From: a virus
IMG/VR virus record: IMGVR_UViG_3300027822_000011
Direction: 5' to 3' (one strand)
DNA length: 64,000 nucleotides
Position 1 is the first letter of the stretch. Each line of letters begins with the position of its first letter. The notes under the pieces are model-generated. The model was given only the letters and a program-made list of their open reading frames with translations, was not told the origin of the DNA and did not search any database. A program made the translations under genes and the position numbers. Positions 8,585 to 22,217 of the stretch are shown here, one piece after another.

Positions 8585-10015
8585 TTAAGCTGCTTTTAAT
8601 TCAACAACACCAGAATCTTGTGCCCAATTGGCATCTACTTCATATACATTTGCTTCAACCACCATTGGCACAATTATCCATTTCCATTGTTTTAATAACC
8701 ATAAACAAGCAACATCTTGGACAATTTCAAGGACATCTTCTGTTTCTTTTGGATGGGCATCAAATACCAATTCATCATGTATCTGTCCTATTAATTTAGT
8801 TTTCATTTTGTACTTTTCAAGTCTATCATACACTTCAATATAAGTTTTTAAAAGCATATGAAAAGCAGCCCCCTGAATAGGATAGTTATTAATATCATTT
8901 TCAGACATTTCACCCGAACAGGTAAAACCAGTCAAAGTTTTCAAAAAGCCATTTTTATAATATTTTTTTACATTTCGTTTTTTCCAGTCACGGTATCCCT
9001 TAAACCGATTATTCCAAAAATCATCTTCTACCCACTTAATATGCTCAACAAAATCCTCGTAATCATATATTCCTTTACCCCGTAAATGCTTTCCTAAATT
9101 CTTACCATTCATAAGGACAGGGCCATCTTTTTTACTAAAACTTCCCTTTGTCGGCAATTTACCCCAACTTGCTAAAGAAGCAGCATTATTCAAATAATAA
9201 TCACCATAAAATTGTGGAAAGACAAACCCATTCTTTGCCCCTTTTCGAAGAATTTTTTCTGCCCCTGACTTTTGAAATTCATCTAATGCATAACACTGAA
9301 TTGCCATATCAGTATGCATATTATTAACTTCTGGATGTCGGACATAATGAAGCATTTTTTTATCTTTATGATAACAACAAGAAGTTCCAACTTCAATACC
9401 GGTAAAATCTGCTGCCATTAAATGATAACCTTTACGAGGAATAAATGACGACCTTACTATTTTTTTCTGCTTTACATCCCTATTTGGTTGGTTATGAAAA
9501 TTGATATTACTTGAACTTGATCTAAAAGTCCTTGCAATATGTAAATGGAAAAATGGGTGAATAATGCCATCAACCTGTTCTTTTAAAATCCCCAATAAAA
9601 AAGTATTATTGACTTTCGATAATTTTTTATACATCATAAAAGATTGGAGATCAGGATAAATTTTTGAAATTAATTCAAGTGATTCACCATCAACAGAAGC
9701 CTGACCGGCTGGATTTGCTTTACTTGGTTTGGTCATTTTAACCGGTTTAATTCCTTCATTTTTAAAAAGAATTTCACGCAACTGTTTATCTGAATTCCAA
9801 TTTGGAGAAATGAAAGTTTTTTGCCATTTTCTACCCAATTTAGTACCAGCAAATTCTTTAGTCAACATTTTACATTTTTTGGTCAAATATTTATATTGCT
9901 TTTCACAATATTTCACATCAACCCGCATTCCTTGAATACTTGCCTGACTAAAGCATTGAATCCCTTTATGCATCAATTGTTGAGCATCTTGGGTAGTAGC
10001 CATCACCTGTGCCAT
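8585..10015 (-). CDS. polA: Family A DNA polymerase, polymerase domain only
   Basis: TFRSSSSNINFHNQP, motif A ADFTGIE, motif B RKGAKNGFVFPQFYG, NYPIQG, motif C QIHDEL. Confidence 0.9.
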   Translation of the reverse strand: MAQVMATTQDAQQLMHKGIQCFSQASIQGMRVDVKYCEKQYKYLTKKCKMLTKEFAGTKLGRKWQKTFISPNWNSDKQLREILFKNEGIKPVKMTKPSKANPAGQASVDGESLELISKIYPDLQSFMMYKKLSKVNNTFLLGILKEQVDGIIHPFFHLHIARTFRSSSSNINFHNQPNRDVKQKKIVRSSFIPRKGYHLMAADFTGIEVGTSCCYHKDKKMLHYVRHPEVNNMHTDMAIQCYALDEFQKSGAEKILRKGAKNGFVFPQFYGDYYLNNAASLASWGKLPTKGSFSKKDGPVLMNGKNLGKHLRGKGIYDYEDFVEHIKWVEDDFWNNRFKGYRDWKKRNVKKYYKNGFLKTLTGFTCSGEMSENDINNYPIQGAAFHMLLKTYIEVYDRLEKYKMKTKLIGQIHDELVFDAHPKETEDVLEIVQDVACLWLLKQWKWIIVPMVVEANVYEVDANWAQDSGVVELKAA

Positions 10016-10542
10016 TATAAACTTCCTTTTTCATAATAAGGACAATCTAAGCAAGCCAACATTTTACTACTTCCTTGATGTTTCATTGATTCAAGACAAA
10101 TATTACGATTTAAACAATCCCATGTTTCAGAACTTGATAAATCATCTTCTGTCTGTTTATAAAATTTTCCCAATCTATAATATTTAGTCCCTTTTTCTGG
10201 CTCAGAACTTTCACTAAATTTACTGCATATTCTACAAGTTGGGTTTTCCCTTAAATAAAACCCCCAAAATTCTGCCCCACATTTACATCTTTTATATTTA
10301 ATCAAAAATGGAGTTGGGTTTTCACAAGTACAAACTTCAACCATTTGTTTCTTTTTATTGCCAGGCAAAAGTAAATATTTTTTTCTGTTTTCCCTGGCTT
10401 TATCTTCCTTGAATTCAATAATACACTTTCTGCATTGATAAATTTGATAAACTAACCCATCTTTACATTTAGTCAAATCAATATCACCAACCCATGCTGG
10501 TTTATTCAATTGGGCTTTATTAAATCTTTTTAAATTTGTCAT
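10015..10542 (-). CDS. Cys-rich (zinc-binding) hypothetical protein lying between the two polymerase halves
   Basis: Multiple CxxC/CxC pairs; TAATG overlap with polA. Confidence 0.65.
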   Translation of the reverse strand: MTNLKRFNKAQLNKPAWVGDIDLTKCKDGLVYQIYQCRKCIIEFKEDKARENRKKYLLLPGNKKKQMVEVCTCENPTPFLIKYKRCKCGAEFWGFYLRENPTCRICSKFSESSEPEKGTKYYRLGKFYKQTEDDLSSSETWDCLNRNICLESMKHQGSSKMLACLDCPYYEKGSL

Positions 10543-10543
10543 T

Positions 10544-11767
10544 TCAACCTCTTTTCATCATTTCCATTTGTAATAAAGTCAACCCAAATCCATAAATTGA
10601 ATCAAGTCCACAATAAGTTAAAATAGATTTTTCACCATAATTTTTTATATATCGAAGGATATCATTAAAAGAATTTGCACCAAACTCATCCCCTGATTGT
10701 AAGAAAGGGCTTACATGTGAATCATAATCAGATACCCCAAAATTCACATAAGTTTGAAATTTTAAGCCATTCACTCCTTTTCTATTATCCAATATATGAG
10801 CATTGACCATCGTATCCCAATACCAATTTGCCACCTTTGCTTTCAAAATTATTAGTGACCACATATTTTCAAAACTTAAATTATGAGCACTCTTTTTCAC
10901 ATTTGGGTTTTCAAGAACTCTTTTAAAAAGCTTATTTCTGTAACCATTGTTCATCCACGAATAGCATTCTTTTTCTCCAATACAGGCTGATGTATTCGTA
11001 ATCACATGCCCCTTTTTATGGGGCTTTAATCCAGTACCCTCATAATCAAATGACATCAAATCTGCTTTCATAAGCCTTGGGTAAATTGATCTAAAATGTT
11101 TATCAGATTCAATATAAGTAATATATTTTTTTTCATCAGTATATTTTATTGAAGTATTTAACTTTGCTAATCCGGCTTTGATATCAAGCAACCAAACAAC
11201 TTCAGCCAAATTAATTTTTTTATAAATATCACGAGTTTCCACATATTTGGGAGAAAAAATAGGGCAAATCCATGTATCAAAATTTCTATCAGGAATTACC
11301 CAACCCCTCCACCTTTCCATGCCTCCCAACCCCTTTTTCCAATTTGCACCAATCACAGATTGAATAGCAGCTGCCCCCACTAAAAATACCAATTTTGGTT
11401 TATATTCTTTTATAATTTTTTTAACATTTTTTCTGCAACACATCACTTCTTTTTCTTCTGGTTTACTATCTTTGGGAATAGGGCAAGTGACCGCAAAAGT
11501 AGTCAAAGCATCTTGGTAAAGATTAATACCAACCTGTTTAAAAATATCTTTTATCAATTCACCCTTCCCCCCTTGCCAAGGTTTCCGTGCTCGATCTTCC
11601 TTTTTTGTTGGGGCTTCACCAATAATTAAAATCCTTTTACCAAATTTACCCCATGGTTTAATCCTACCTACTTTTGCTTTTTTGGACAAACCACAAGACG
11701 CACAGCTTAAAGGAATTTTAGTGATCTGATCACTTTTTACATCTTTTTTATCAAAAAAAGGTTTCAT
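10544..11767 (-). CDS. Uracil-DNA glycosylase (family 4)-like domain fused to a 3'-5' proofreading exonuclease (N-terminal half of the polymerase)
   Basis: CASCGL, ILIIGEAP, CP..C.. Fe-S pattern; then FDYEGTGL (ExoI), AHNLSFE (ExoII), YCGLD (ExoIII); start at MKPFF chosen by hand. Confidence 0.85.
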   Translation of the reverse strand: MKPFFDKKDVKSDQITKIPLSCASCGLSKKAKVGRIKPWGKFGKRILIIGEAPTKKEDRARKPWQGGKGELIKDIFKQVGINLYQDALTTFAVTCPIPKDSKPEEKEVMCCRKNVKKIIKEYKPKLVFLVGAAAIQSVIGANWKKGLGGMERWRGWVIPDRNFDTWICPIFSPKYVETRDIYKKINLAEVVWLLDIKAGLAKLNTSIKYTDEKKYITYIESDKHFRSIYPRLMKADLMSFDYEGTGLKPHKKGHVITNTSACIGEKECYSWMNNGYRNKLFKRVLENPNVKKSAHNLSFENMWSLIILKAKVANWYWDTMVNAHILDNRKGVNGLKFQTYVNFGVSDYDSHVSPFLQSGDEFGANSFNDILRYIKNYGEKSILTYCGLDSIYGFGLTLLQMEMMKRG

Positions 11768-11778
11768 AAGATTACCTT

Positions 11779-12795
11779 TTATTCCGGAGAAATATTGACA
11801 ACATATTCCCATTTATCAGATTTAAATTTTAAAAGCCCGTTTTTATTATCCAGCTTTGCCACCATACTGCTTTTTAAAATATCTTTAAGGAAAAACGGAT
11901 TAATCTCAAATTTTACTTTCCTTTTTGATTTAGTTGAAATCTTTTCTTCAAACCAACCCTGGATACATTTACTTTTCACTTTCATAGATTCTTTTTTAAT
12001 AGAAAGATGTATATTTTTTTCGTCTTCATCTTCACCAATAAAATCAACAGCCCGATCAATCACCCCTTTTAATTTATCTGGAAAACTCAATGATTTTCCT
12101 TTGATATCATACAAAAAAGAAGTATCTGGAAATGAAGTATTTGCATACATCCTGCAGGATATAATCACATTATCTTTTGTTTTGAAATGAACCCAATTTT
12201 TCGTAATTGAATATGTAGTAATCGGGTGATTCAAAATGGATGGGGCAGAAGTAGCCGGTAAAAGAAATTCCTTGTTAATAACCTTTTCCATTTTATATTT
12301 AAAACCCCGGTGACCATTTGAACTTTGAACTTGATCACCAGCAATATGAAGACAGGTCAATTTAGGTGCAGAGGCATCAGATCCGGCAGCAAAAATACTA
12401 AGTCTGATTCCTTCGGTAAAATCACTTGGTAATTTTTTCCATTTTTTAACAGGGGCTCCAAGTTCTTCCAAACTGACTTGTCCTTCTGGATTAATAGGCA
12501 ATCCAGCTTTTGATTTACTACTTTTAATCAGCAGGTCTTTCCCTTTCATCACCACTTTGATATACCCATCAGAATCAGGAATTACCTTTTGAATATGGGC
12601 ATGGAGTTTGTCAGCTTTTACAGTTCCAGTAAAAGAATGGTCAAGGGGGCATTTAACCGCAATTACATCATTGTAAGTGATCATTAAACCATCTATAAAT
12701 GTAACCGAATCGGCAAACTCAATAATATCCTTATTTGAAAGTCCTGGTTTAATGGCATCCAATTTTTCAAGAAATTGTTCTTTTTTAATTTTCAT
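11779..12795 (-). CDS. DNA polymerase sliding clamp (DnaN beta-like)
   Basis: 338 aa with three-domain clamp-like pattern (SSNGHRG, FPD, INPFFLKDIL); context of polymerase and clamp loader. Confidence 0.75.
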   Translation of the reverse strand: MKIKKEQFLEKLDAIKPGLSNKDIIEFADSVTFIDGLMITYNDVIAVKCPLDHSFTGTVKADKLHAHIQKVIPDSDGYIKVVMKGKDLLIKSSKSKAGLPINPEGQVSLEELGAPVKKWKKLPSDFTEGIRLSIFAAGSDASAPKLTCLHIAGDQVQSSNGHRGFKYKMEKVINKEFLLPATSAPSILNHPITTYSITKNWVHFKTKDNVIISCRMYANTSFPDTSFLYDIKGKSLSFPDKLKGVIDRAVDFIGEDEDEKNIHLSIKKESMKVKSKCIQGWFEEKISTKSKRKVKFEINPFFLKDILKSSMVAKLDNKNGLLKFKSDKWEYVVNISPE

Positions 12796-13246: not shown

Positions 13247-13757
13247 TTAAAGGTGTTTCCATCTTATTTTTCTAATTATTCGTGAAATAGTTGTTTGAGC
13301 AACCTCAAATCTTTTTGCTAATTTTTCTTGACTATACTTTCCACTTTTATACAATTTTCTTATCCTGTTAACTTGATATTCAGATAATTTACATCCAGGA
13401 TGACTTATCCCATATGGCATTAAATTATTTTCTGCAGCATGTATCATATTTTCTTGATGAGTCATCCACTCAAGATTATTCCACCAATTATTACCACAAT
13501 TACCATCTTTGTGATTACATTCATGAATTGGTGATGGTTTTGGTGGACCAAAATGAATTAAAACCAATAAATGGATATCTTTATGATAAAAGGTTTTATC
13601 TTGATAAAGTCCAACATACTTTCTACCTCCTAAATTTTTAGCGTGTTTTAATATTCTTGTAATCTTCCCTTTAAACAATCTAACTCTACCAAAACATGAA
13701 ATTTGATAATACAAAAAAACCCTCAATATCTTTCCATCTTTCGGTATTTCTTTTCAT
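13247..13757 (-). pseudogene. NUMOD4-HNH endonuclease with a 1-nt frameshift in a T7 run near its start
   Basis: ATG 13757 gives MKRNTERWKDIEGF; removing one T joins it to LYYQISCFGRV and the HNH motif CNHKDGNCGNNWWNNLEW. Confidence 0.7.
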
Positions 13758-13906
13758 TTATTAAGACCCTTCCGCACATATTTTTTGACCTGATCTGCTT
13801 TAGTAAGAGTATGAAAATAACTTATCAATCTTTCTTTTGCCTTTTGCTTAGTAAGTGATTTTCCTTGCCCTGGTTCCAAAAGCCAGGTAGCTAAATAAAT
13901 CCTCAT
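13754..13906 (-). CDS. Mini-ORF of the TGT N-terminal-module family (50 aa)
   Basis: MRIYLATWLLEPGQGKSLTKQKAKERLISYFHTLTKADQVKKYVRKGLNK; ATGA overlaps. Confidence 0.75.
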   Translation of the reverse strand: MRIYLATWLLEPGQGKSLTKQKAKERLISYFHTLTKADQVKKYVRKGLNK

Positions 13907-14058
13907 CGTTTGGCCTTTTTTATTATTTTAAAAGAAAGCAAAGCATTAAACAACTTTGCATTAATTTCATAAAACGAAAGTAATCTATGATTTTTACGAA
14001 GCAAGAACTCCCTTTCTTTTGTTTTTCCAGCCACACTTCCTGCTAATATAATTTTCAT
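13903..14058 (-). CDS. Mini-ORF of the TGT N-terminal-module family (51 aa)
   Basis: MKIILAGSVAGKTKEREFLLRKNHRLLSFYEINAKLFNALLSFKIIKKAKR; ATGA overlaps. Confidence 0.75.
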   Translation of the reverse strand: MKIILAGSVAGKTKEREFLLRKNHRLLSFYEINAKLFNALLSFKIIKKAKR

Positions 14059-14234
14059 TTCTTTACCCCTAATAATCTATGATTAATGCGCCGTATTTCT
14101 TTGAAAACATTGCCGCAATATAAATCATTAATCTTGATACTCCAATAGCTTAAAAGGCGTTCTTTTATATCACACATCCTTTTTCCTGAAGTGGCTTCAG
14201 TCCCTGGGGCGGTACTTGCCAGATAAATTTTCAT
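14055..14234 (-). CDS. Mini-ORF of the TGT N-terminal-module family (59 aa)
   Basis: MKIYLASTAPGTEATSGKRMCDIKERLLSYWSIKINDLY...; ATGA overlaps. Confidence 0.75.
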   Translation of the reverse strand: MKIYLASTAPGTEATSGKRMCDIKERLLSYWSIKINDLYCGNVFKEIRRINHRLLGVKK

Positions 14235-14572
14235 TTCTTTACCCACGAAAGATTACTACTCCAATTATTGGTTTTATCCCCATCTTTAAAATGAACTTTA
14301 TATTGATATAACAATGCAGGCATTGGTGGCTTAAAATGAAGCAAAACCAAATGATGTATGTATAATACATGATATTCTTCTCTATCATTAATAACAACAA
14401 ATGAAAGACCCTTTTCATCCTTTTCAATTGGCAAAAATCTTTCGTTCAAAAAAGCAGGAACTCTTTTACCAAAATTAGCAATTTCACACGACTTAACTCT
14501 GCCCAGATTTGAAATAAAATAGTAATCAAGTCCTGTTATTTGTTTCCAGATTTCAAAGTTTCTTTTTATCAT
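14231..14572 (-). CDS. Short or degenerate NUMOD4-HNH protein
   Basis: EIWKQITGLDYYFISNLGRVKS; HFKDGDKTNNWSSNLSW. Confidence 0.7.
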   Translation of the reverse strand: MIKRNFEIWKQITGLDYYFISNLGRVKSCEIANFGKRVPAFLNERFLPIEKDEKGLSFVVINDREEYHVLYIHHLVLLHFKPPMPALLYQYKVHFKDGDKTNNWSSNLSWVKK

Positions 14573-16644
14573 TTTTCAAAAAAACCTTTCATTCTGCTTT
14601 TCAATATAAACGGCCAGGGCCAAGGTTTCATTTTCTTTTCCAAATCCAAGAAATAAATAATGTTCAATTCATCCCGCATTTTGTAATCATTACAAAGCCC
14701 CGGCTTAATAATTGTTTCAACAATACTTTCTTTCTTTTTATTCCATTTTTCATTTTTCTTTAAAACATATGTATCTGGGTTTTCATTCCTGAATGATGAT
14801 TTGCCCATTTTAAAGCCCTTTGCTTTATAATACTTTTTAAAAATTTTCTGTTGAACTGGGCTGAAAGTTTTGAAATGGGCTTCTTTCTTTTTTGCTGCTG
14901 GTGATTTACTACTAACCGTTATTTTTAATGGGTTTTTGTGATAATCATATTGACCATTACTTCTTCTGGGGATCAAGATTCCACCCATACGACCGGTCAT
15001 TACCCATGAAGTTGAATCAACCGAATTACCAGTAACATATATTTTATCATTACATCTCGTAAAAAAAGCCTTTGAAGGTACCCTGACACACCATAAATTA
15101 CCAGTATACTTTACTTCTTTTTGTTTTACTTCTTTAAAATAAATCCAATCAACTGAAGAACTATTTAAACCTTTCAACCCTTTCTTAGTAGAATAAATTG
15201 AAGTTGGAATTTCAAGAAGTAAACAAGCAATTCTAATTATTTCTAAATTATGTTTTTTTACTTTTCTTGATACTGCTATTGCAAAACCCTTTTTACGAAT
15301 TAATTTAGTAATAGACCCATCTGCTAAAACTGAACAATCAATAAATCTTTGTAATTGATCTCTAGTCAAGTCCCAAATAAAATGGATAGGAAGTTTTTTA
15401 TTAGGAGCTATCTCCAATAAAAAATCACGAATCTCCCCATATAATTCAAACCAATTTTCACCTTTACAATGAGCTTCATGTGATTCATCAAGTGCTCTTT
15501 GAATCCTTTCCACCTTCCCAAAATTAACCGAATCAGATTGATATAACATAACAGAATCTTTTTTATATTTTGATCTTTTTTTAATACTTCCATCTGTCCA
15601 AAACCAAGCAAGTAATTCAACCTGTTCATTTGTGTATTTTTTTTCAACCGGAAAAGAATATTTACCAACTCTTGGAATACAATCTCCAATTTTCATTGAA
15701 TTAGTTGTTCTAAATTTCCAATTTTCTTTTTTATTATTTTGATTAGTTGTTACCCAATTATGATTGTGAGTAACTCTTGCAGAAAAATTTCTATTATCCA
15801 TTGCAACCAAATCAATATTTTTTACTGGAAAAACTGGAATTTCAAGAATAGACTCCCACTGAGCTTTTCCTTGTGAATAACATAAAATATCTTCTCCAAC
15901 TTCTAAATCATTTTTAAACTTCCAACCTGATTTTGTAAGTACTTCGTGATCTTCTTCAGTCATACAATACCAAGGATACCGAAGCATCAGAGATAAGGAA
16001 GTCATACCAAACCCATGAATCTTAACCCGAGGTATTCCATCTTTATCACAAATATGATTTAAAAAGATATCATCAAGCCAGGGGCGCAAATCTTTTGTTG
16101 ATATTGGAACCATCCCACCAAGGGCAACATACTTGTATCCTTTCAAATACTTTTTTAAATATTTAATCGGTTCCCCAAAATGATAACAAGGTAATGGGCT
16201 CAATCCGGCTTTTTCCATTATCCGTTGATTTTTCAAAGTTTCATCTGGATCACCAATGGCATCCAAATTTGCGTAAACATCAATATATTCAATATTACTT
16301 TTAATAAATGCAATATATTCGTGAATATTAATTACGGCATTTTGTGACCAAGCTGAATAAGCCCCAGAATCCAAAAACAAATTTACCTTATTTTGTTTAT
16401 TTTTAGTTTTCATATACTCACCTATATTCCATTTTTTATTATATAACCATTTTAACTGATCAACTTTTTTAATCGGAAACTCATACCCATTTTCTTGTTT
16501 AATACAAAAACATTCGGTAATATCTTTATGCTTCAATACAGAATGACTGGCAAATGAATGTAATCTTTTATTAAATAAAGAGCAAATCTCCCTTTCCCTT
16601 TCCTTTGAATGAAACCCAGTGTTGCCATAAAAAAATAAGTGCAT
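14569..16644 (-). CDS. TGT-fold (DpdA-like) 7-deazaguanine insertion enzyme containing an intein
   Basis: LFLDSGAYSAW, ANLDAIGD, PCYHFGE, VALGGMV, KIHGFG and, after the intein, SVDSTSW; located in the que cluster. Confidence 0.8.
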   Translation of the reverse strand: MHLFFYGNTGFHSKEREREICSLFNKRLHSFASHSVLKHKDITECFCIKQENGYEFPIKKVDQLKWLYNKKWNIGEYMKTKNKQNKVNLFLDSGAYSAWSQNAVINIHEYIAFIKSNIEYIDVYANLDAIGDPDETLKNQRIMEKAGLSPLPCYHFGEPIKYLKKYLKGYKYVALGGMVPISTKDLRPWLDDIFLNHICDKDGIPRVKIHGFGMTSLSLMLRYPWYCMTEEDHEVLTKSGWKFKNDLEVGEDILCYSQGKAQWESILEIPVFPVKNIDLVAMDNRNFSARVTHNHNWVTTNQNNKKENWKFRTTNSMKIGDCIPRVGKYSFPVEKKYTNEQVELLAWFWTDGSIKKRSKYKKDSVMLYQSDSVNFGKVERIQRALDESHEAHCKGENWFELYGEIRDFLLEIAPNKKLPIHFIWDLTRDQLQRFIDCSVLADGSITKLIRKKGFAIAVSRKVKKHNLEIIRIACLLLEIPTSIYSTKKGLKGLNSSSVDWIYFKEVKQKEVKYTGNLWCVRVPSKAFFTRCNDKIYVTGNSVDSTSWVMTGRMGGILIPRRSNGQYDYHKNPLKITVSSKSPAAKKKEAHFKTFSPVQQKIFKKYYKAKGFKMGKSSFRNENPDTYVLKKNEKWNKKKESIVETIIKPGLCNDYKMRDELNIIYFLDLEKKMKPWPWPFILKSRMKGFFEK
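15025..15966 (-). mobile_element. Intein (314 aa) with LAGLIDADG homing endonuclease
   Basis: Starts PWY|CMTEEDHEVLT; block B RVTHNH; ELLAWFWTDGS and VLADGS endonuclease motifs; ends YVTGN|SVDS (Cys1, terminal Asn, +1 Ser). Confidence 0.9.
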
Positions 16645-16862
16645 TATTCAATCCTCTGTATACTACTCAATTCAAATTTGGCAATACCATTTTCAAGGAG
16701 TGCCACCAAATTTAAAGCCTCATCACATGCTTCTTTTTGTAAAGAATCTCTGGCATATATCAATATTTCTTTAAATTTATACATCTCATCTTCTGTTTCT
16801 ATATGGATAGCAAATGGAATAAACACCTTTTTTATTTCAATAATTTTCATAACTTCACCCAT
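16644..16862 (-). CDS. Hypothetical protein
   Basis: 72-aa ORF coupled to the TGT-like gene. Confidence 0.5.
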   Translation of the reverse strand: MGEVMKIIEIKKVFIPFAIHIETEDEMYKFKEILIYARDSLQKEACDEALNLVALLENGIAKFELSSIQRIE

Positions 16863-17071
16863 ATTCCATTTGATTTAGTATATCCATTTTGATTAAAACC
16901 AGCTTTAACCGTTTTTAATATCTCATCCATTTTGTCAAGAATTTGTTTAAATTCACCAGATTGAGAATGGGGCTGAACTCCGGTATATTCCCAATTTCCT
17001 TTCCAAAGTTCTTTTTTATCAAAATTTGACTTTTCTTTTCCGAGTTGATCCCAACTTTGTTTAAGTGTCAT
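16847..17071 (-). CDS. Hypothetical protein
   Basis: 74-aa ORF with AAGGAG RBS. Confidence 0.5.
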   Translation of the reverse strand: MTLKQSWDQLGKEKSNFDKKELWKGNWEYTGVQPHSQSGEFKQILDKMDEILKTVKAGFNQNGYTKSNGIWVKL

Positions 17072-17137
17072 TTAATTTCTCCTTTTTAAAGATACCAAAC
17101 CGTTTTAATCTTCGCCATTGTTTATCACAGGGGTGAA

Positions 17138-17242
17138 TCACAATATTTCAAAATATGAAAGCATTCTACCCCTGAATAAACGATTAGTATTAACCCTGGT
17201 AATAGGGCTTAAACCACCATTTCCAGCAAAGAAAATTTTCAT
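17138..17242 (-). CDS. Mini-ORF of the TGT N-terminal-module family (34 aa, possibly truncated by a frameshift)
   Basis: MKIFFAGNGGLSPITRVNTNRLFRGRMLSYFEIL; begins 3 nt after the yhhQ stop. Confidence 0.65.
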   Translation of the reverse strand: MKIFFAGNGGLSPITRVNTNRLFRGRMLSYFEIL

Positions 17243-17245
17243 CTT

Positions 17246-17803
17246 TTAGTCTATTAACTCTTCTAAATCTTTCAACCATCCTGTGGCATCTGGCTCTAAT
17301 GTGGATAATGTAAAATCCCAATGAATTCGTTTTTCTTTAATAAATGGTAAGACAAAAAGTCCTGATACATATTTAATCAAAGCCTGCCCCCAAATAGCTG
17401 GCCAATACCATCCAAAAGCAATGGAAACAAAAATCATTGAATCCAACGGACATGAAAGAATATTTGAAAAAATTATTCGTTTTTTCAAAGATACTTTCAA
17501 ATATTTAAAAATGTACCAATCCACAAATTCAGAAACTCCAAAAGCTGCCACCGATGCTAAAGCCACTTTTTGATTTAAAAAAAAAGTAATAAAAGTAGCA
17601 AGTATCATCCAAAGCCAGCAAGCTTTATCTCCCCATTTCCTTTGAACAAAATCCCGAAAAGAAAAAGTTAACCCCACAAAAATTACTCCTGCAGGAAAAG
17701 CCAACCCAGCAACTTTAACTATACCAAACCAGAGTACAAAAAGATTCCCTAAAAGAATTGATACAAGATACATAATTGGCCAAAAATACTTATTTTTTGT
17801 CAT
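17246..17803 (-). CDS. yhhQ: YhhQ/QPTR (VUT family) preQ0/preQ1 transporter-like membrane protein
   Basis: Multi-TM protein with GLTFSFRDFVQRKWG, ASVAAFGVSEFVDW, LDSMIFVSIAFG; in the que cluster. Confidence 0.8.
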   Translation of the reverse strand: MTKNKYFWPIMYLVSILLGNLFVLWFGIVKVAGLAFPAGVIFVGLTFSFRDFVQRKWGDKACWLWMILATFITFFLNQKVALASVAAFGVSEFVDWYIFKYLKVSLKKRIIFSNILSCPLDSMIFVSIAFGWYWPAIWGQALIKYVSGLFVLPFIKEKRIHWDFTLSTLEPDATGWLKDLEELID

Positions 17804-17806
17804 AAT

Positions 17807-17968
17807 TCATCTCCTATTTTTTAAAAGATTAAATGCCCGTTTTTGATAATGTTGGTCTCTTTCATCATATCTTATTTCAAAAAATGATAAAAGCCTTTTC
17901 CGCAAAACAAGTAACCAACCAGTTTCCCTTTTTTTAAAACCTGAACTACCTGCCATATAGATTAACAT
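17807..17968 (-). CDS. Mini-ORF of the TGT N-terminal-module family (53 aa)
   Basis: MLIYMAGSSGFKKRETGWLLVLRKRLLSFFEIRYDERDQHYQKRAFNLLKNRR. Confidence 0.75.
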   Translation of the reverse strand: MLIYMAGSSGFKKRETGWLLVLRKRLLSFFEIRYDERDQHYQKRAFNLLKNRR

Positions 17969-18120
17969 AATGATTTCCAAAACAAAAAAACCTGCCGCAT
18001 TGTAATATCAATTTTATGAAAATAATAAGAATATAGCCGGCGTTTAATCACTCCATGTTTAATCAATTCCTTTTCTTCCCTTACCCGATCAGGAATATTG
18101 CCGGCTAAATAAATAATCAT
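17962..18120 (-). CDS. Mini-ORF of the TGT N-terminal-module family (52 aa)
   Basis: MIIYLAGNIPDRVREEKELIKHGVIKRRLYSYYFHKIDITMRQVFLFWKSLC; ATGA overlap with the folE stop. Confidence 0.75.
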   Translation of the reverse strand: MIIYLAGNIPDRVREEKELIKHGVIKRRLYSYYFHKIDITMRQVFLFWKSLC

Positions 18121-19031
18121 TTAATAAATCCTAAAAATTCAGCCCTGACTTTTTGTTTTTCTTTAAAAACCCCTTTAATTGATGAAGTCACCATTGTTGA
18201 AGTTTGCTGTTCAACCCCCCTGGCTGTCATGCATGAATGCCGGGCTTCAATTACACAAGCTGCCCCTTTTGGTTTCAAATATTTCATCAGTGCATTTGTG
18301 ACCTGTTCACCAATTCTTTCTTGAATCTGAAGCCGGCGAGAATAAATCTCCAAAAGCCTGGCCAATTTTGATACTCCAATTACCCTGCCATTTGGTATAT
18401 AAGCAATATGAGCAACCCCGTTAAATGGCAACATATGATGCTCACAAGTTGAATGCATTGTGATGTCCTTTAATACCACCATTTCATCACAATCATCTTC
18501 AGAAAAAGTTTTCATTATTTTTTCCGGATCCATTTCATAGCCACCATAAATCCTATCAAACGATTTAATGACCCTTTTTGGAGTTTCCACCAATCCTTCC
18601 CGGGTTATATCATCCCCTATATATTCAATCAATCGGACAACACTTGATTCAATATCATTCTCCGCTTTTGGTTCCCACCAAAAATGAATCCATTCATTTG
18701 GAAAATAACAAGCGGCAAACTGAAGATCTGGAAAAAATTTAGCCGCATGGTCTTTGATACCAAGAACCGCCACTGGATATCCATCAAATGCTTTAATGGT
18801 TTTACCTGAATCAATCAAATCATCAACAATTAAAATTTCTGATCTTTTGTATTTGGTAAAATTCTTTAATTCAATTAACGGCAAATCAAGAGAAACCCCC
18901 AAAGCAACCGCCAATGGAATACCGCCACGTGGAATTCCATAAATTGCTTTTAAATTAGTTTTTGAATTTTTTATAGCATCAAAAAGATACTCAACAGCAT
19001 CTTGAAAATCCTCTAACGAATATTCAATCAT
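18117..19031 (-). CDS. folE: Type I phosphoribosyltransferase fused to GTP cyclohydrolase I
   Basis: N-terminal GIPRGG and LIVDDLIDSGKT (PRPP loop); C-terminal STCEHHMLPF, GVSKLAR, RRLQIQE; true start at the ATGA overlap with queC. Confidence 0.9.
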   Translation of the reverse strand: MIEYSLEDFQDAVEYLFDAIKNSKTNLKAIYGIPRGGIPLAVALGVSLDLPLIELKNFTKYKRSEILIVDDLIDSGKTIKAFDGYPVAVLGIKDHAAKFFPDLQFAACYFPNEWIHFWWEPKAENDIESSVVRLIEYIGDDITREGLVETPKRVIKSFDRIYGGYEMDPEKIMKTFSEDDCDEMVVLKDITMHSTCEHHMLPFNGVAHIAYIPNGRVIGVSKLARLLEIYSRRLQIQERIGEQVTNALMKYLKPKGAACVIEARHSCMTARGVEQQTSTMVTSSIKGVFKEKQKVRAEFLGFIK

Positions 19032-19693
19032 TTTTCCTCCTGATATTGAAGTGGATCTTTGTGCCCATTCATTTGAAATGCTTCTTTTCTTTCCACACAG
19101 CTGCCACACTTTCCACAAGCCAAATCATTTGAAGAATAGCAAGTCCGTGTAGACTGATAAGGAACCCCCAATTTCATACCAATTTCAACAATTTTACTTT
19201 TTGACAAATAAAGAAATGGAGCGTATATTCCTTGTACAGTATTATCGGTACCAAAATCTATAGCCCGCCCCATATGCCAAATAAATTCTGGTCTACAATC
19301 TGGATAAATATGATGATCTCCCGCATGGACTCCAAGGGCTATTTTATCAATTTTTCTGGTTTCTGCAATCCCGGCCAAAATACTTGAAAAAATCATATTT
19401 CTGGCAGGAACAACTGTTTGTTTCATTGACTCAGCCTGATAATGTCCTTCAGGGAGGGGTCCCCCTAAATTTAGCAAAGCTGATTCAATACCAGTCATTG
19501 CCTGTGAAATATCAATTAATTTCAAATTAATTTTATAATATGCAGCTATCACTTTTGCCGCTGTATTTTCCAAATCATTATGTTTAGAACCATAATAAAA
19601 TGAAATGGCTTCAACTTCATTTCCTTTATTCAATAAATAAGCAGCTAAAGTAGTTGAATCAAGTCCACCTGATAAAGAAAGCAAATATTTCAT
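19028..19693 (-). CDS. queC: 7-cyano-7-deazaguanine (preQ0) synthase
   Basis: LSGGLDSTT, VPARNMIF, YPDCRPEF, TCY..CGKCGSC. Confidence 0.95.
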   Translation of the reverse strand: MKYLLSLSGGLDSTTLAAYLLNKGNEVEAISFYYGSKHNDLENTAAKVIAAYYKINLKLIDISQAMTGIESALLNLGGPLPEGHYQAESMKQTVVPARNMIFSSILAGIAETRKIDKIALGVHAGDHHIYPDCRPEFIWHMGRAIDFGTDNTVQGIYAPFLYLSKSKIVEIGMKLGVPYQSTRTCYSSNDLACGKCGSCVERKEAFQMNGHKDPLQYQEEK

Positions 19694-19714
19694 AAATCAT
19701 TCCTTAATAAAGAA

Positions 19715-19744
19715 ATCCCCGGAAAACACAAAGCCCCCGGGGAT
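19715..19744 (-). terminator. Intrinsic terminator-like hairpin
   Basis: 8-bp perfect stem ATCCCCGG/CCGGGGAT followed by TTCTTT on the minus strand. Confidence 0.65.
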
Positions 19745-19780
19745 CATTTAACAAACAGGGCTATTTAAACTGATAGCCGT

Positions 19781-20947
19781 CTATTTTGAAGTCTTGGCAA
19801 CCCCGTCTTGGGTTTTTTTGAAAACCCATTTCCCTTTGTCGTTTTCGGTAAGAGAGGCGTTCTTTTCCTTACGAATCCGGTTGGGAACCTGAATGTTCAA
19901 GGTCTTTTCCATTTTATCAATATCACGATCCGGAAAGGCTTTGCCCAGTTTTTTCAACAGGGTCTTTTTGCTCATAGGTTTGGAACTGATCAGGGAAACA
20001 ATAGTTGCGATCACCCCCGGCTTTTTGCCTTTCTTTTCTTTACCGGCCGGTTCAATACCAAGTTTTTTCAGCATAAGTTTTTTCAGATCACGGGCACCAT
20101 CAAGTCCTTTAAACTTTTTAGCTTTTTTCTGAATCTTTTTGAATTCATCATTACCGGCAACGAGTTCCTGTAATTCAACCAGCTTTTTGGTCCCTTTTAC
20201 CTTTTCTTCAATGGACAGGGCTTCATCATCGTTATCGTCGTTGTCATCGTCGTTGTCATCGTCGTTGTCATCATCATCATCGTTGTCATTATCGTTGTCA
20301 TCATCATCGTCGTCGTCGTCATCATCATCGTCATCATCATCATTATCATCGTCGTCGTCATTATCGTTGTCATCGTTGTCATCGTCATCGTTATCATTAT
20401 CATCGTTATCATTATCATCGTTATCATCTGATTCGGACAGACCCAGGGCGACAGCAATTTCAATTCGTAATTCCCCAACCTTTTTGCCGGATGTTTTGAT
20501 TTTTAATTTTTTTTCTTTATTAAGGGCTTTCAAATCGGCCGTTTTCATTTTCATGATATCGGCAAGGCTCAATTCATCATCACCACCAGCATCATCATCG
20601 TTATCGTCGTTGTCATCGTCGTTGTCATCGTCGTTGTCATCGTCATTGTCATCGTCGTTGTCATCGTCGTTGTCATCGTCGTTGTCATCGTCGTTGTCAT
20701 TTGGGGGATCTAAGACCTCCACTTTAAACTTTGTCAAAACTGCGGCCAATTCTTCTGAGATTTCATCATCGGTAGTCAGGCAGGCAGCAACTTGAATAAT
20801 TTTCTTTTTCACCTGCTTCAAATTCCCTTTTGTAATAACGATTTTATCATCATTGTCATCAGTCGGGTTCACGATCACCTGAAGTTCTTTACCAACCTTT
20901 TTCAATGTTTTCAAATCTTTCACATCTACTTTCGTCTTTTTAGCCAT
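19781..20947 (-). CDS. Asp/Asn-tract protein with a small helical (Rho-N/SAP-like) domain and a basic C-terminal domain
   Basis: Two D/N tracts; C-terminal KKPGVIATI...NIQVPNRIRK resembles the C-terminus of ORF 35433; AAGGAG RBS before MAKK. Confidence 0.8.
   Translation of the reverse strand: MAKKTKVDVKDLKTLKKVGKELQVIVNPTDDNDDKIVITKGNLKQVKKKIIQVAACLTTDDEISEELAAVLTKFKVEVLDPPNDNDDDNDDDNDDDNDDDNDDDNDDDNDDDNDDNDDDAGGDDELSLADIMKMKTADLKALNKEKKLKIKTSGKKVGELRIEIAVALGLSESDDNDDNDNDDNDNDDDDNDDNDNDDDDDNDDDDDDDDDDDDDDDNDNDNDDDDDNDDDNDDDNDDNDDEALSIEEKVKGTKKLVELQELVAGNDEFKKIQKKAKKFKGLDGARDLKKLMLKKLGIEPAGKEKKGKKPGVIATIVSLISSKPMSKKTLLKKLGKAFPDRDIDKMEKTLNIQVPNRIRKEKNASLTENDKGKWVFKKTQDGVAKTSK
20225..20700 (-). 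repeat. Two Asp/Asn triplet tracts (about 20225-20430 and 20590-20700), including gtcatcgtcgtt 12-mers
   Basis: Direct inspection; encodes NDDD repeats. Confidence 0.95.
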
Positions 20948-21085
20948 TTTGTTCTCCTTTTTCAAATAATAAATAAATTTCATTTGGTCATCAAATAACC
21001 ATCTGCTCTAATATAATCAATAACACTTTTTTATGATCTTTTTTCTCCTTTATTTTTTAATATTTTCCATAATTAATTTTTTATT

Positions 21086-21784
21086 TTATGGCATATCAAC
21101 CAATTTATGAATTTGTAAATTTAAAATAGCATTTAATTTAGATTTTTGCAAGCCCTGAATAATAATTTTTGATCGGTCTTTTAATTCGGCCAATAATTCT
21201 TTACCACTTACAGACTCAGGAATTGAGAGCATTGGAGAATAAGCAAACTGAGCGATACAGCCCTGAAGAAATAGCTTTTGATGAATTCCCATAGCATATG
21301 CCATGGTCATCCCATTTGGGATTATAAACTTGATAAAATCAGTCGATTTCAAATCAACAAAATGACTATCCACCATTTTTTCAATATAATTCAATTTATA
21401 ATCCATCACAATAGTGGTAACTTTAAGAACTCCAAGTGGAATAGGAAAAGACCCATTGGTTTCAATAGATATTTTTCTTTTCCCATCATCTAAAAATGCT
21501 ATCAAAGTCTGCAAAGCAGTTTTCTGCAAAAAAGGCTCACCCCCGGTAATCACAATATTGGTAGCTTGAGTAAATTTCACCCTTTCAATAATATCACCAA
21601 TTAATATTGCCTGCTCAGATTGCATTACTTGAGTTTCTTTTGCGTCACAATAATCACATTTTAAATTGCAACCCGCCAACCGAATAAAAAGACAATTAGC
21701 CCCCTGGGGGAACCCACCAACTTCTCCTGAAATACTTTCAAAAATTTCACTTACATATAAACATTTTCCATTTATTTTAGACAT
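21086..21784 (-). CDS. queE: 7-carboxy-7-deazaguanine synthase (radical SAM)
   Basis: EIFESISGE, FIRLAGCNLKCDYCD (CxxxCxxC), ITGGEP, IETNG. Confidence 0.95.
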   Translation of the reverse strand: MSKINGKCLYVSEIFESISGEVGGFPQGANCLFIRLAGCNLKCDYCDAKETQVMQSEQAILIGDIIERVKFTQATNIVITGGEPFLQKTALQTLIAFLDDGKRKISIETNGSFPIPLGVLKVTTIVMDYKLNYIEKMVDSHFVDLKSTDFIKFIIPNGMTMAYAMGIHQKLFLQGCIAQFAYSPMLSIPESVSGKELLAELKDRSKIIIQGLQKSKLNAILNLQIHKLVDMP

Positions 21785-22217
21785 CAGCCCCTCCATATTC
21801 TGAATAACCAGTATCAGTTTCATGTAATCTGATTTGAAGTTTTACCAAACCTTTCACTTCAACACTTATCTCCCTGAATAAAATATCATAAAAATCTTTT
21901 GCCATATTTTCTGCAGTCGGATTATATTTAACAAATACCACTTTTAAATCATACATATCAATAATACTGGGAATGCTACCACCTACATCAGGACAAAGCA
22001 CCAAGATATGATCAAATTTGTTAATAATTTTTTCATTAACAATCTCTTTCAGTTTCTTGAAATCAATCACCATTCCATCAACATTAAGCCCTATTGCTGT
22101 GATAATGACCTCAAGAACATATGAATGCCCATGAATGTTTTGACACTCCTTTGAATAGGATTTATTCAAAATATGCGCCATTTCAAACTTAAATTTCTTT
22201 CTAATTTTCCACATCAT
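21777..22217 (-). CDS. queD: 6-carboxytetrahydropterin synthase
   Basis: FEMAH, CQNIHGHSY, NPTAENMA, ETDT. Confidence 0.95.
   Translation of the reverse strand: MMWKIRKKFKFEMAHILNKSYSKECQNIHGHSYVLEVIITAIGLNVDGMVIDFKKLKEIVNEKIINKFDHILVLCPDVGGSIPSIIDMYDLKVVFVKYNPTAENMAKDFYDILFREISVEVKGLVKLQIRLHETDTGYSEYGGADV

Follow-up and report, generated by a model that had tools for sequence, protein, structure and literature searches.

DNA transglycosylases and related systems

DpdA enzymes replace guanine with 7-deazaguanine in DNA and thereby shield phage DNA from restriction and from Cas9, with GA and GGC as the only target motifs in phage CAjan and GA as that of iggy. Here, we have analyzed the dpdA locus in a stretch of viral DNA of 64,000 nucleotides (nt) (IMG/VR record IMGVR_UViG_3300027822_000011; this whole stretch is referred to as the window), in which a phage-type (DpdA1) gene is accompanied by six small open reading frames (ORFs) on the minus strand that repeat its N-terminal module. 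These small ORFs are called minis below, and the part of DpdA from strand 3 of its triosephosphate isomerase (TIM) barrel onward is called the core. On balance, we consider it probable that the locus encodes a naturally split DpdA1 whose N-terminal quarter-barrel comes from small, partly interchangeable subunits.

Canonical DpdA1 proteins from Escherichia phages (CAjan, 9g and Seuratvirus), as well as their homologs in Rhizobium, Stenotrophomonas and Microcystis phages, share with the window protein 47-53% identity over the core, the catalytic Asp of the DSGA motif and a second Asp on strand 8, and the gene order queE-queC-queD-folE-dpdA-clamp-polymerase is alike. However, canonical DpdA1 is a single chain in which strand 1, helix 1, strand 2 and helix 2 are integral, whereas the proteins of the window clade are mostly module-less and are accompanied by one to seven free modules. 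The bacterial DpdA of the Dpd restriction-modification system (7UI4) also has a barrel of the tRNA-guanine transglycosylase (TGT) type with the catalytic Asp on strand 3, as in the phage clade, and is the best structural match of both the clade core and a model of canonical DpdA1. It is a single chain with a zinc site (CXCX2CX22H) and large insertions, and it needs the ATPase DpdB (PMC10164549). By contrast, the translated window ORF is without this Cys motif, there being only one Cys in its C-extein (see below), and DpdB was not seen in the vicinity. Eukaryotic TGT (QTRT1/QTRT2) likewise works with a second, paralog-derived subunit, but that partner is a whole-barrel paralog, whereas the partner in the window would be a fragment of 50 amino acids (aa) that completes the catalytic barrel.

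Enzyme pieces that reassemble are known from phage "genes in pieces" and from laboratory complementation of TIM-barrel fragments, and homing-endonuclease genes lie at or near the splits. HNH endonuclease genes flank the array in the window as well, but the detached piece is here a quarter-barrel that has been multiplied into conserved paralog classes and repeatedly re-fused. The HsdS subunits of Type I systems, where one catalytic machine has several alternative small specificity partners encoded nearby, offer an analogy only: there is no homology, the partner in the window would be part of the catalytic fold, and an effect on specificity is hypothetical. To our knowledge, exchangeable subunits of quarter-barrel size have not been described for any natural TIM barrel. 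The large family of mini-proteins is undescribed in the literature searched: our searches found no description of a split DpdA, of the mini-proteins or of natural exchangeable quarter-barrel subunits, in agreement with an earlier reading of this sequence (below, the original prediction), to which no such described system was known.

A family of small genes repeating the DpdA N-terminus

All six minis proposed by the original prediction, of 34-59 aa, are present at the coordinates it gave and lie on the minus strand (Table 1), and a seventh copy of the module forms the N-terminus of the 691-aa DpdA ORF (14569-16644). Common to the seven copies is the pattern M-x-[IL]-[YFI]-[LMF]-[AY]-[GST], followed by 15-25 residues and then R-[LM]-[LYIH]-S-[YF]. 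Leave-one-out hidden Markov models (HMMs), in which six copies were used for training and the seventh was omitted, were run on the complete set of 1,697 six-frame ORFs from the window. In every run the omitted copy ranked seventh, directly behind the six training copies, with E-values of 4e-9, 7e-8, 1e-7, 4e-6, 7e-6, 8e-4 and 0.035, and the best unrelated ORF had E>=0.2. The genes are also chained. ATGA overlaps were read in the sequence at the junctions of FolE with mini 1, HNH with mini 4, mini 4 with mini 5, mini 5 with mini 6, and mini 6 with the next ORF; minis 1 and 2 overlap by 7 nt, and 3-nt spacers separate mini 2 from the transporter gene Vut_1 and Vut_1 from mini 3. Taken together, the leave-one-out ranks and the chained junctions indicate that the similarity among the minis, including the copy at the N-terminus of DpdA, is real and not due to chance.

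An HMM of the seven copies detected no further copy within the 64 kb. The minis had no match above threshold in Pfam and none among PHROGs, a profile search of the PDB gave a best E-value of 0.11, which was spurious, and the ESM Atlas returned only unnamed clusters with scores <=0.85. When the region was compared with phage genomes by blastn, no close relative was detected, the sole match being 200 nt under FolE.

The module as the first quarter of the barrel

Canonical DpdA1 (300-307 aa) begins with M-[RKN]-[ILV]-[YF]-x-A-[GA], which is followed by a helix containing both acidic and basic residues, the motif L-E-S-Y-H-Y, another helix and finally VFLDSGAF. Using hhalign, columns 1-37 of the minis could be aligned to residues 1-48 of canonical DpdA1, N-terminus to N-terminus (P=2e-4). 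Since AlphaFold2 did not place the module of P0062, a naturally fused member of the clade, canonical DpdA1 was modelled to fix the topology, using P0271, which is 99% identical to DpdA of Escherichia phage GottfriedDienst. The N-terminal region of this model consists of strands (E) and helices (H) in the order E2-6, H25-32, E37-40, H47-55 and E60-63 (the last being DSGA), with a predicted local distance difference test score (pLDDT) of 86-93, and its residue 1 superposes on residue 4 of 7UI4 (Z=18.0) and on residue 40 of Zymomonas mobilis TGT (Z=17.9). The core of the P0062 model is a TGT-type (beta/alpha)8 barrel with pLDDT >90, for which 7UI4 is the best match (Z=12.6, 231 aligned residues) and TGTs score Z~12; it aligns only from residue 81 of 7UI4 and residues 86-91 of TGT, that is, from strand 3 on.

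Published structures indicate what this part of the barrel does. The catalytic Asp95 of bacterial DpdA is located after strand 3, and loop insertions between strand 1 and helix 1 and between strand 2 and helix 2 line the DNA-binding surface and the flanks of the active site (PMC10164549), while V45 on strand 1 and L68 on strand 2 of Z. mobilis TGT floor the ribose-34 pocket (PMC8597004). Based on the hhalign result, the superposition of the canonical model and these structures, the module is, as modelled, the first quarter of the barrel (strand 1-helix 1-strand 2-helix 2) and contributes to the substrate site, which accords with the earlier view of the motif as the first beta-alpha-beta unit of a TIM barrel.

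DpdA cores lacking the module

Among the 120 best homologs of the window DpdA, 90 have fewer than 20 residues ahead of the catalytic Asp; they start just before DSGA and are therefore without the module (strands 1-2). About 25 of the 120 carry a fused module, which bears out the original prediction that such fusions ahead of DSGA occur among related proteins. Minis were found beside DpdA, on the same strand and in numbers from one to seven, on 13 of 14 related viral contigs, the 13 being all those that extend past the gene. The module-less DpdAs of five contigs (L002, L005, L008, L013 and L014) have a mini immediately upstream or downstream, which in three cases overlaps the DpdA stop, and those of three others (L021, L022 and L026) likewise adjoin minis. 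In a different phage type, represented by contigs of 84 and 97 kb, the two DpdAs lack the module and are accompanied by six and four minis, respectively. Reverse look-up from four minis of different classes led to an adjoining DpdA core each time. None of the six canonical DpdA1 loci scanned had a mini at E<=0.01. Both kinds of arrangement that had been anticipated, arrays near dpdA and fusions to DSGA cores, were recovered, and the idea that the core needs a separate N-terminal piece fits most relatives, whose cores lack the module and have minis next door.

An exhaustive profile search yielded 595 clusters at E<=1e-3, nearly all of them stand-alone proteins of 45-75 aa. Two long matches, P0145 and P0234, are repeat proteins with RLLSF-like words and were taken as false positives. 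Several of the minis found by HMM lie in stretches where no gene had been called; because minis are short and often missed by gene callers, module-less dpdA genes may be mis-annotated as complete. Two ORFs, P0158 (L023, 6001-7089) and P0135 (L024, 6001-7218), contain three tandem modules, each starting with Met, fused to one DSGA core; both adjoin QueC, and a gene with a ParB_N domain follows each of them. On two contigs from one metagenome (L003, 2647-2765; L004, 10586-11002), several minis are frameshifted at the same spot, at A-rich ERE codons, which is probably a homopolymer sequencing error, with recoding as the alternative.

The window DpdA: intein, tethered module and probable internal start

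The window ORF was recognized as a DpdA1-type DNA transglycosylase by its match to PHROG 887 (E=7e-51), and tblastn with its core identified 174 phage records (46-53% identity, 97-98% of the core covered), among them the Seuratvirus "7-deazaguanosine inserting enzyme" and DpdAs of Rhizobium, Sulfitobacter and other phages. Both LFLDSGAYSAW and SVDSTSW are found in the ORF, and the two Asp residues, which are invariant in two homolog alignments, correspond to D63 and D206 of CAjan (PMC7544227). The core is interrupted by an intein, which begins with CMTEED (Cys1) and ends with TGN followed by Ser of the extein (C-terminal Asn and Ser nucleophile); its match to LAGLIDADG_3 is weak (E=0.006). Residues 83-229 and 542-690 of the ORF form one contiguous match to the core HMM, so that the exteins rejoin across the intein and strand 8 is restored only after splicing. 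The same HMM detected no second DpdA-like core in the window that might be a client of the extra minis. Inteins also occur in FolE (L027) and DNA polymerase A (L026) of related contigs.

At the start of the window core lies an in-frame ATG (Met78), whose ribosome-binding-site and start motif is shared by mini 4, mini 5 and the ORF that starts at 16850. A Met located 4-22 residues ahead of the catalytic Asp, at the point where genes without the module begin, is retained in each of the 24 fused homologs examined, and Shine-Dalgarno-like words also precede the internal Met in L006, L009, L011 and L027. Because of this retained Met and these upstream words, a core-only isoform of the window DpdA starting at Met78 is plausible but unproven. 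The surroundings of Met78 (16391-16453) also form a 63-nt direct repeat, with 73% identity, with 16828-16890, where the small ORFs 16847-17071 and 16644-16862 join; both copies contain GGTGA-N4-ATGAAAA, a common translation-start context. These small ORFs between mini 3 and DpdA (74 and 72 aa; 16644-17071) had no family match and are not members of the mini family.

Selection, classes and exchange of modules

When the window is compared with L001, its nearest relative, the proportion of non-synonymous differences (pN) is 0.12-0.30 and that of synonymous differences (pS) 0.83-0.95 for three orthologous minis, with pN 0.13 and pS 0.71 for the DpdA core; these proportions are given in place of dN/dS (the ratio of the two substitution rates) because synonymous sites are saturated. 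As judged from the sequences, the minis are under purifying selection: their pN lies far below the saturated pS and is comparable to that of the core, which answers the earlier question of whether the peptides are constrained.

Based on the loop motif after strand 1, 150 cluster representatives fall mainly into three classes, namely AG (80), AS.APG.E (42) and ATW..QG..L.K (14); strand 1 and the strand-2 motif R-L-x-S-Y are retained in all of them. Each main class is represented in the window by at least one mini, and L001 preserves the class order of the window downstream of DpdA. The fused module of the L028 DpdA is the ortholog of the free mini 2 of the window (score 166; other window modules <=63), and P0181, a free protein of 75 aa in L028, is the ortholog of the fused module of the window (score 126; others <=64). 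In addition, the fused module of P0118 has mini 5 as its best match (score 81). Thus, different classes can occupy the N-terminal position of the core, and the proposal of interchangeable pieces is borne out at least in that classes swap free and fused positions across phages.

Predicted complex of core and mini

The natural module-less DpdA of L013 was co-folded with its own downstream mini in three runs, using alignments built in this analysis. The interaction prediction score from aligned errors (ipSAE) was 0.88 (runs 0.87-0.88) versus 0.01 for the best control; the ipSAE mark of the co-fold tool is passed by 58 of 80 solved complexes and by 2 of 110 mismatched pairs. The partner had a pLDDT of 70, and at least 88% of the contacts were common to the runs. 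Residues 2-6 of the mini lie against core residues 147-153 (YSVDSTSW, strand 8), residues 23-28 lie against core residues 5-12 (LMLDSGA, strand 3), and helix 1 of the mini is packed against the C-terminal helix of the core. The mini is therefore predicted to sit between strands 8 and 3 and to close the barrel through the interface that barrel closure requires, as the original prediction of completion in trans would have it, here modelled on a relative. Another candidate, a barrel formed by four minis alone, was dropped: L005, L008, L014 and L013 have one or two minis, and the co-fold puts the mini in the core.

A proposed split DpdA and its alternatives

The minis form a real family that is homologous to the N-terminus of canonical DpdA1, adjacent to DpdA and subject to fission and fusion. 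The most coherent account of these patterns would be that each mini is a stand-alone copy of the initial quarter of the DpdA1 barrel. The transglycosylase of this clade would then be split into small N-terminal subunits and a core of six strands (3-8) that bears the two catalytic Asp residues, and a mini would insert between core strands 8 and 3, close the barrel and form part of the pocket that receives the target nucleotide. The conserved paralog classes (AG, AS.APG.E, ATW..QG..L.K and others) would represent alternative N-terminal subunits of one core. The window would have one class fused in cis, together with a core-only form from the probable Met78 start that is completed by the six free minis; we infer both the use of this internal start and a functional difference between the classes. 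If so, assembly of a TIM barrel from a quarter-barrel fragment, so far mainly a matter of protein-engineering work on barrel evolution, would have a natural example.

Several observations weigh against a split enzyme. The window DpdA already has a tethered module, and free minis must therefore compete with it or depend on the unproven internal start. Module-less cores may be active alone. Mini 3 has no second helix, and P0135 and P0158, natural proteins in which a single core carries three modules in a row, do not fit a simple picture of one module per barrel. The AlphaFold2 model of the naturally fused P0062 put the module outside the barrel, as helices with pLDDT 35-65. The co-fold was predicted for proteins of a relative and could in part echo the model's memory of intact TGT barrels; it therefore supports binding and is no demonstration. 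Finally, a search of sequencing runs for this DNA gave a marine metagenome from 2014, the probable source sample, as the only result, and RNA runs were not among the finds.

Some of these points would suit a reading in which one module, either the cis copy or an adjacent mini, is the true N-terminal piece and the extra minis are regulators that act as competitive or dominant-negative partners, form inactive or differently timed complexes, or work by titration. The window indeed combines a cis module with six extras, mini 3 is cut off after strand 2, the classes are without the YTSN loop motif of canonical DpdA1, and the co-fold shows binding only, not activity. However, in other phages, classes that are extra in the window hold the fused position, which is presumably the productive one, many clusters conserve the loop motif of their class, and every class keeps the nearly invariant R-L-x-S-Y in strand 2; we regard regulation as a rather unlikely role. 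Still, the extra copies may be dominant-negative partners or decoys, two alternatives already named in the original prediction. We consider it improbable that the core is self-sufficient and that the minis are an independent family descended from the DpdA N-terminus, serving, for example, in DNA binding or in countering host defence. The segment is an integral and confidently modelled part of the barrel in canonical DpdA1, the clade core aligns to solved structures from strand 3 only, linkage to DpdA is strict and translationally coupled, re-fusion has occurred repeatedly at exactly the N-terminus of the core, and the co-fold interface is the one that barrel topology demands; these features stand against the lack of functional data for the minis and of sequence matches in Pfam, PHROG or the PDB, and against the undocked fused module of P0062. 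That the minis are decaying partial duplications of the dpdA 5' end, produced by recombination or a homing endonuclease, as two HNH endonuclease genes and an intein within the same 3 kb, a repeated 19-nt junction sequence and the frameshifted minis of L003 and L004 might suggest, is very improbable and largely refuted by non-synonymous change far below saturated synonymous change, intact ORFs with conserved starts, hundreds of clusters with class-specific motifs and an ortholog order kept across phages.

Within the split-enzyme reading, we tentatively suggest, as a possibility on the doubtful side, that the mini classes are exchangeable specificity subunits, each giving the core a different strand 1-helix 1 loop at the catalytic face. 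This suggestion is drawn from the position of the class-specific loop at the catalytic face and, by analogy, from the roles of strands 1-2 in TGT and bacterial DpdA. If true, such subunits would retarget the core to other sequence contexts around G, one phage could modify many more of its guanines than a single-motif DpdA1 such as that of CAjan does, and the enzyme would be a natural TIM barrel in which one core draws on a library of quarter-barrel pieces. If the part of the barrel that floors the pocket is a swappable protein of 50 aa, the question of what sets the target motifs of DpdA would become testable.

Gene neighbourhood

FolE, QueD, QueE and QueC are all encoded within 6 kb upstream of the window DpdA on the same strand, and genes for the clamp, polymerase and clamp loader lie downstream, a synteny that matches known DpdA1 phages (Table 1).

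Table 1. Coordinates of the DpdA parts, minis and neighbouring genes in the window.
Feature	Position	Strand	Remarks
Mini 6	13754-13906	-	50 aa, ATW..QG..L.K class
Mini 5	13903-14058	-	51 aa, AG class; similar module core-fused in P0118
Mini 4	14055-14234	-	59 aa, AS.APG.E class
NUMOD4/HNH homing-endonuclease gene	14231-14572	-	between DpdA and mini 4
DpdA core, C-extein part	14569-15024	-	strand 8 to C-terminal helix
Intein	15025-15966	-	314 aa; immediately before SVDSTSW (strand 8, nucleophile Asp)
DpdA core, N-extein part	15967-16413	-	barrel strands 3-7, DSGA catalytic Asp
Whole N-extein	15967-16644	-	includes cis module and linker
In-frame ATG (Met78)	16411-16413	-	start point of module-less homologs; AGGTGA 4 nt upstream
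Linker, cis module to core	16414-16524	-	~37 aa
Cis module	16525-16644	-	GNTGF class; aa 1-40 of DpdA ORF; class free-standing as 75-aa P0181 in L028
Mini 3	17138-17242	-	34 aa; ends just past strand 2, without second helix
Vut_1/YhhQ-type putative preQ0 transporter	17246-17803	-	between mini 2 and mini 3
Mini 2	17807-17968	-	53 aa, AGSSGF class; class fused to DpdA core in L028
Mini 1	17962-18120	-	52 aa, AG class; start overlaps FolE stop (ATGA)
Phosphoribosyltransferase (PRTase)-FolE fusion	18117-19118	-	preQ0 pathway context
QueC	19028-19693	-	preQ0 pathway context
QueE	21086-21823	-	preQ0 pathway context
QueD	21777-22217	-	preQ0 pathway context; whole preQ0 block 18117-22217

The PRTase-FolE ORF has a phosphoribosyltransferase domain N-terminal to GTP cyclohydrolase I (PHROG 8995 and PHROG 2197). 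The DNA polymerase is encoded by two ORFs, 10544-11812 and 8585-10015 (region 8585-11812), both of which match PHROG 17 and between which lies an ORF of 175 aa. A second NUMOD4/HNH endonuclease gene (13247-13757), downstream of mini 6, appears frameshifted: an ATG at 13757, which overlaps the end of mini 6 (ATGA), begins a NUMOD4-like N-terminus (MKRNTERWKDIEG...) that leads into a run of T and lies in a different frame from the 159-aa ORF 13247-13726. As for the HNH gene next to DpdA, the same 19 nt (GGGTAAAGAAATGAAAATT, coding strand) are found at its junction with mini 4 (14224-14247) and at the junction of mini 4 with mini 5 (14048-14071), and the mini-4 ortholog of L001 lies directly behind DpdA; for these reasons, the HNH gene at 14231-14572 looks like an insertion at a gene junction.

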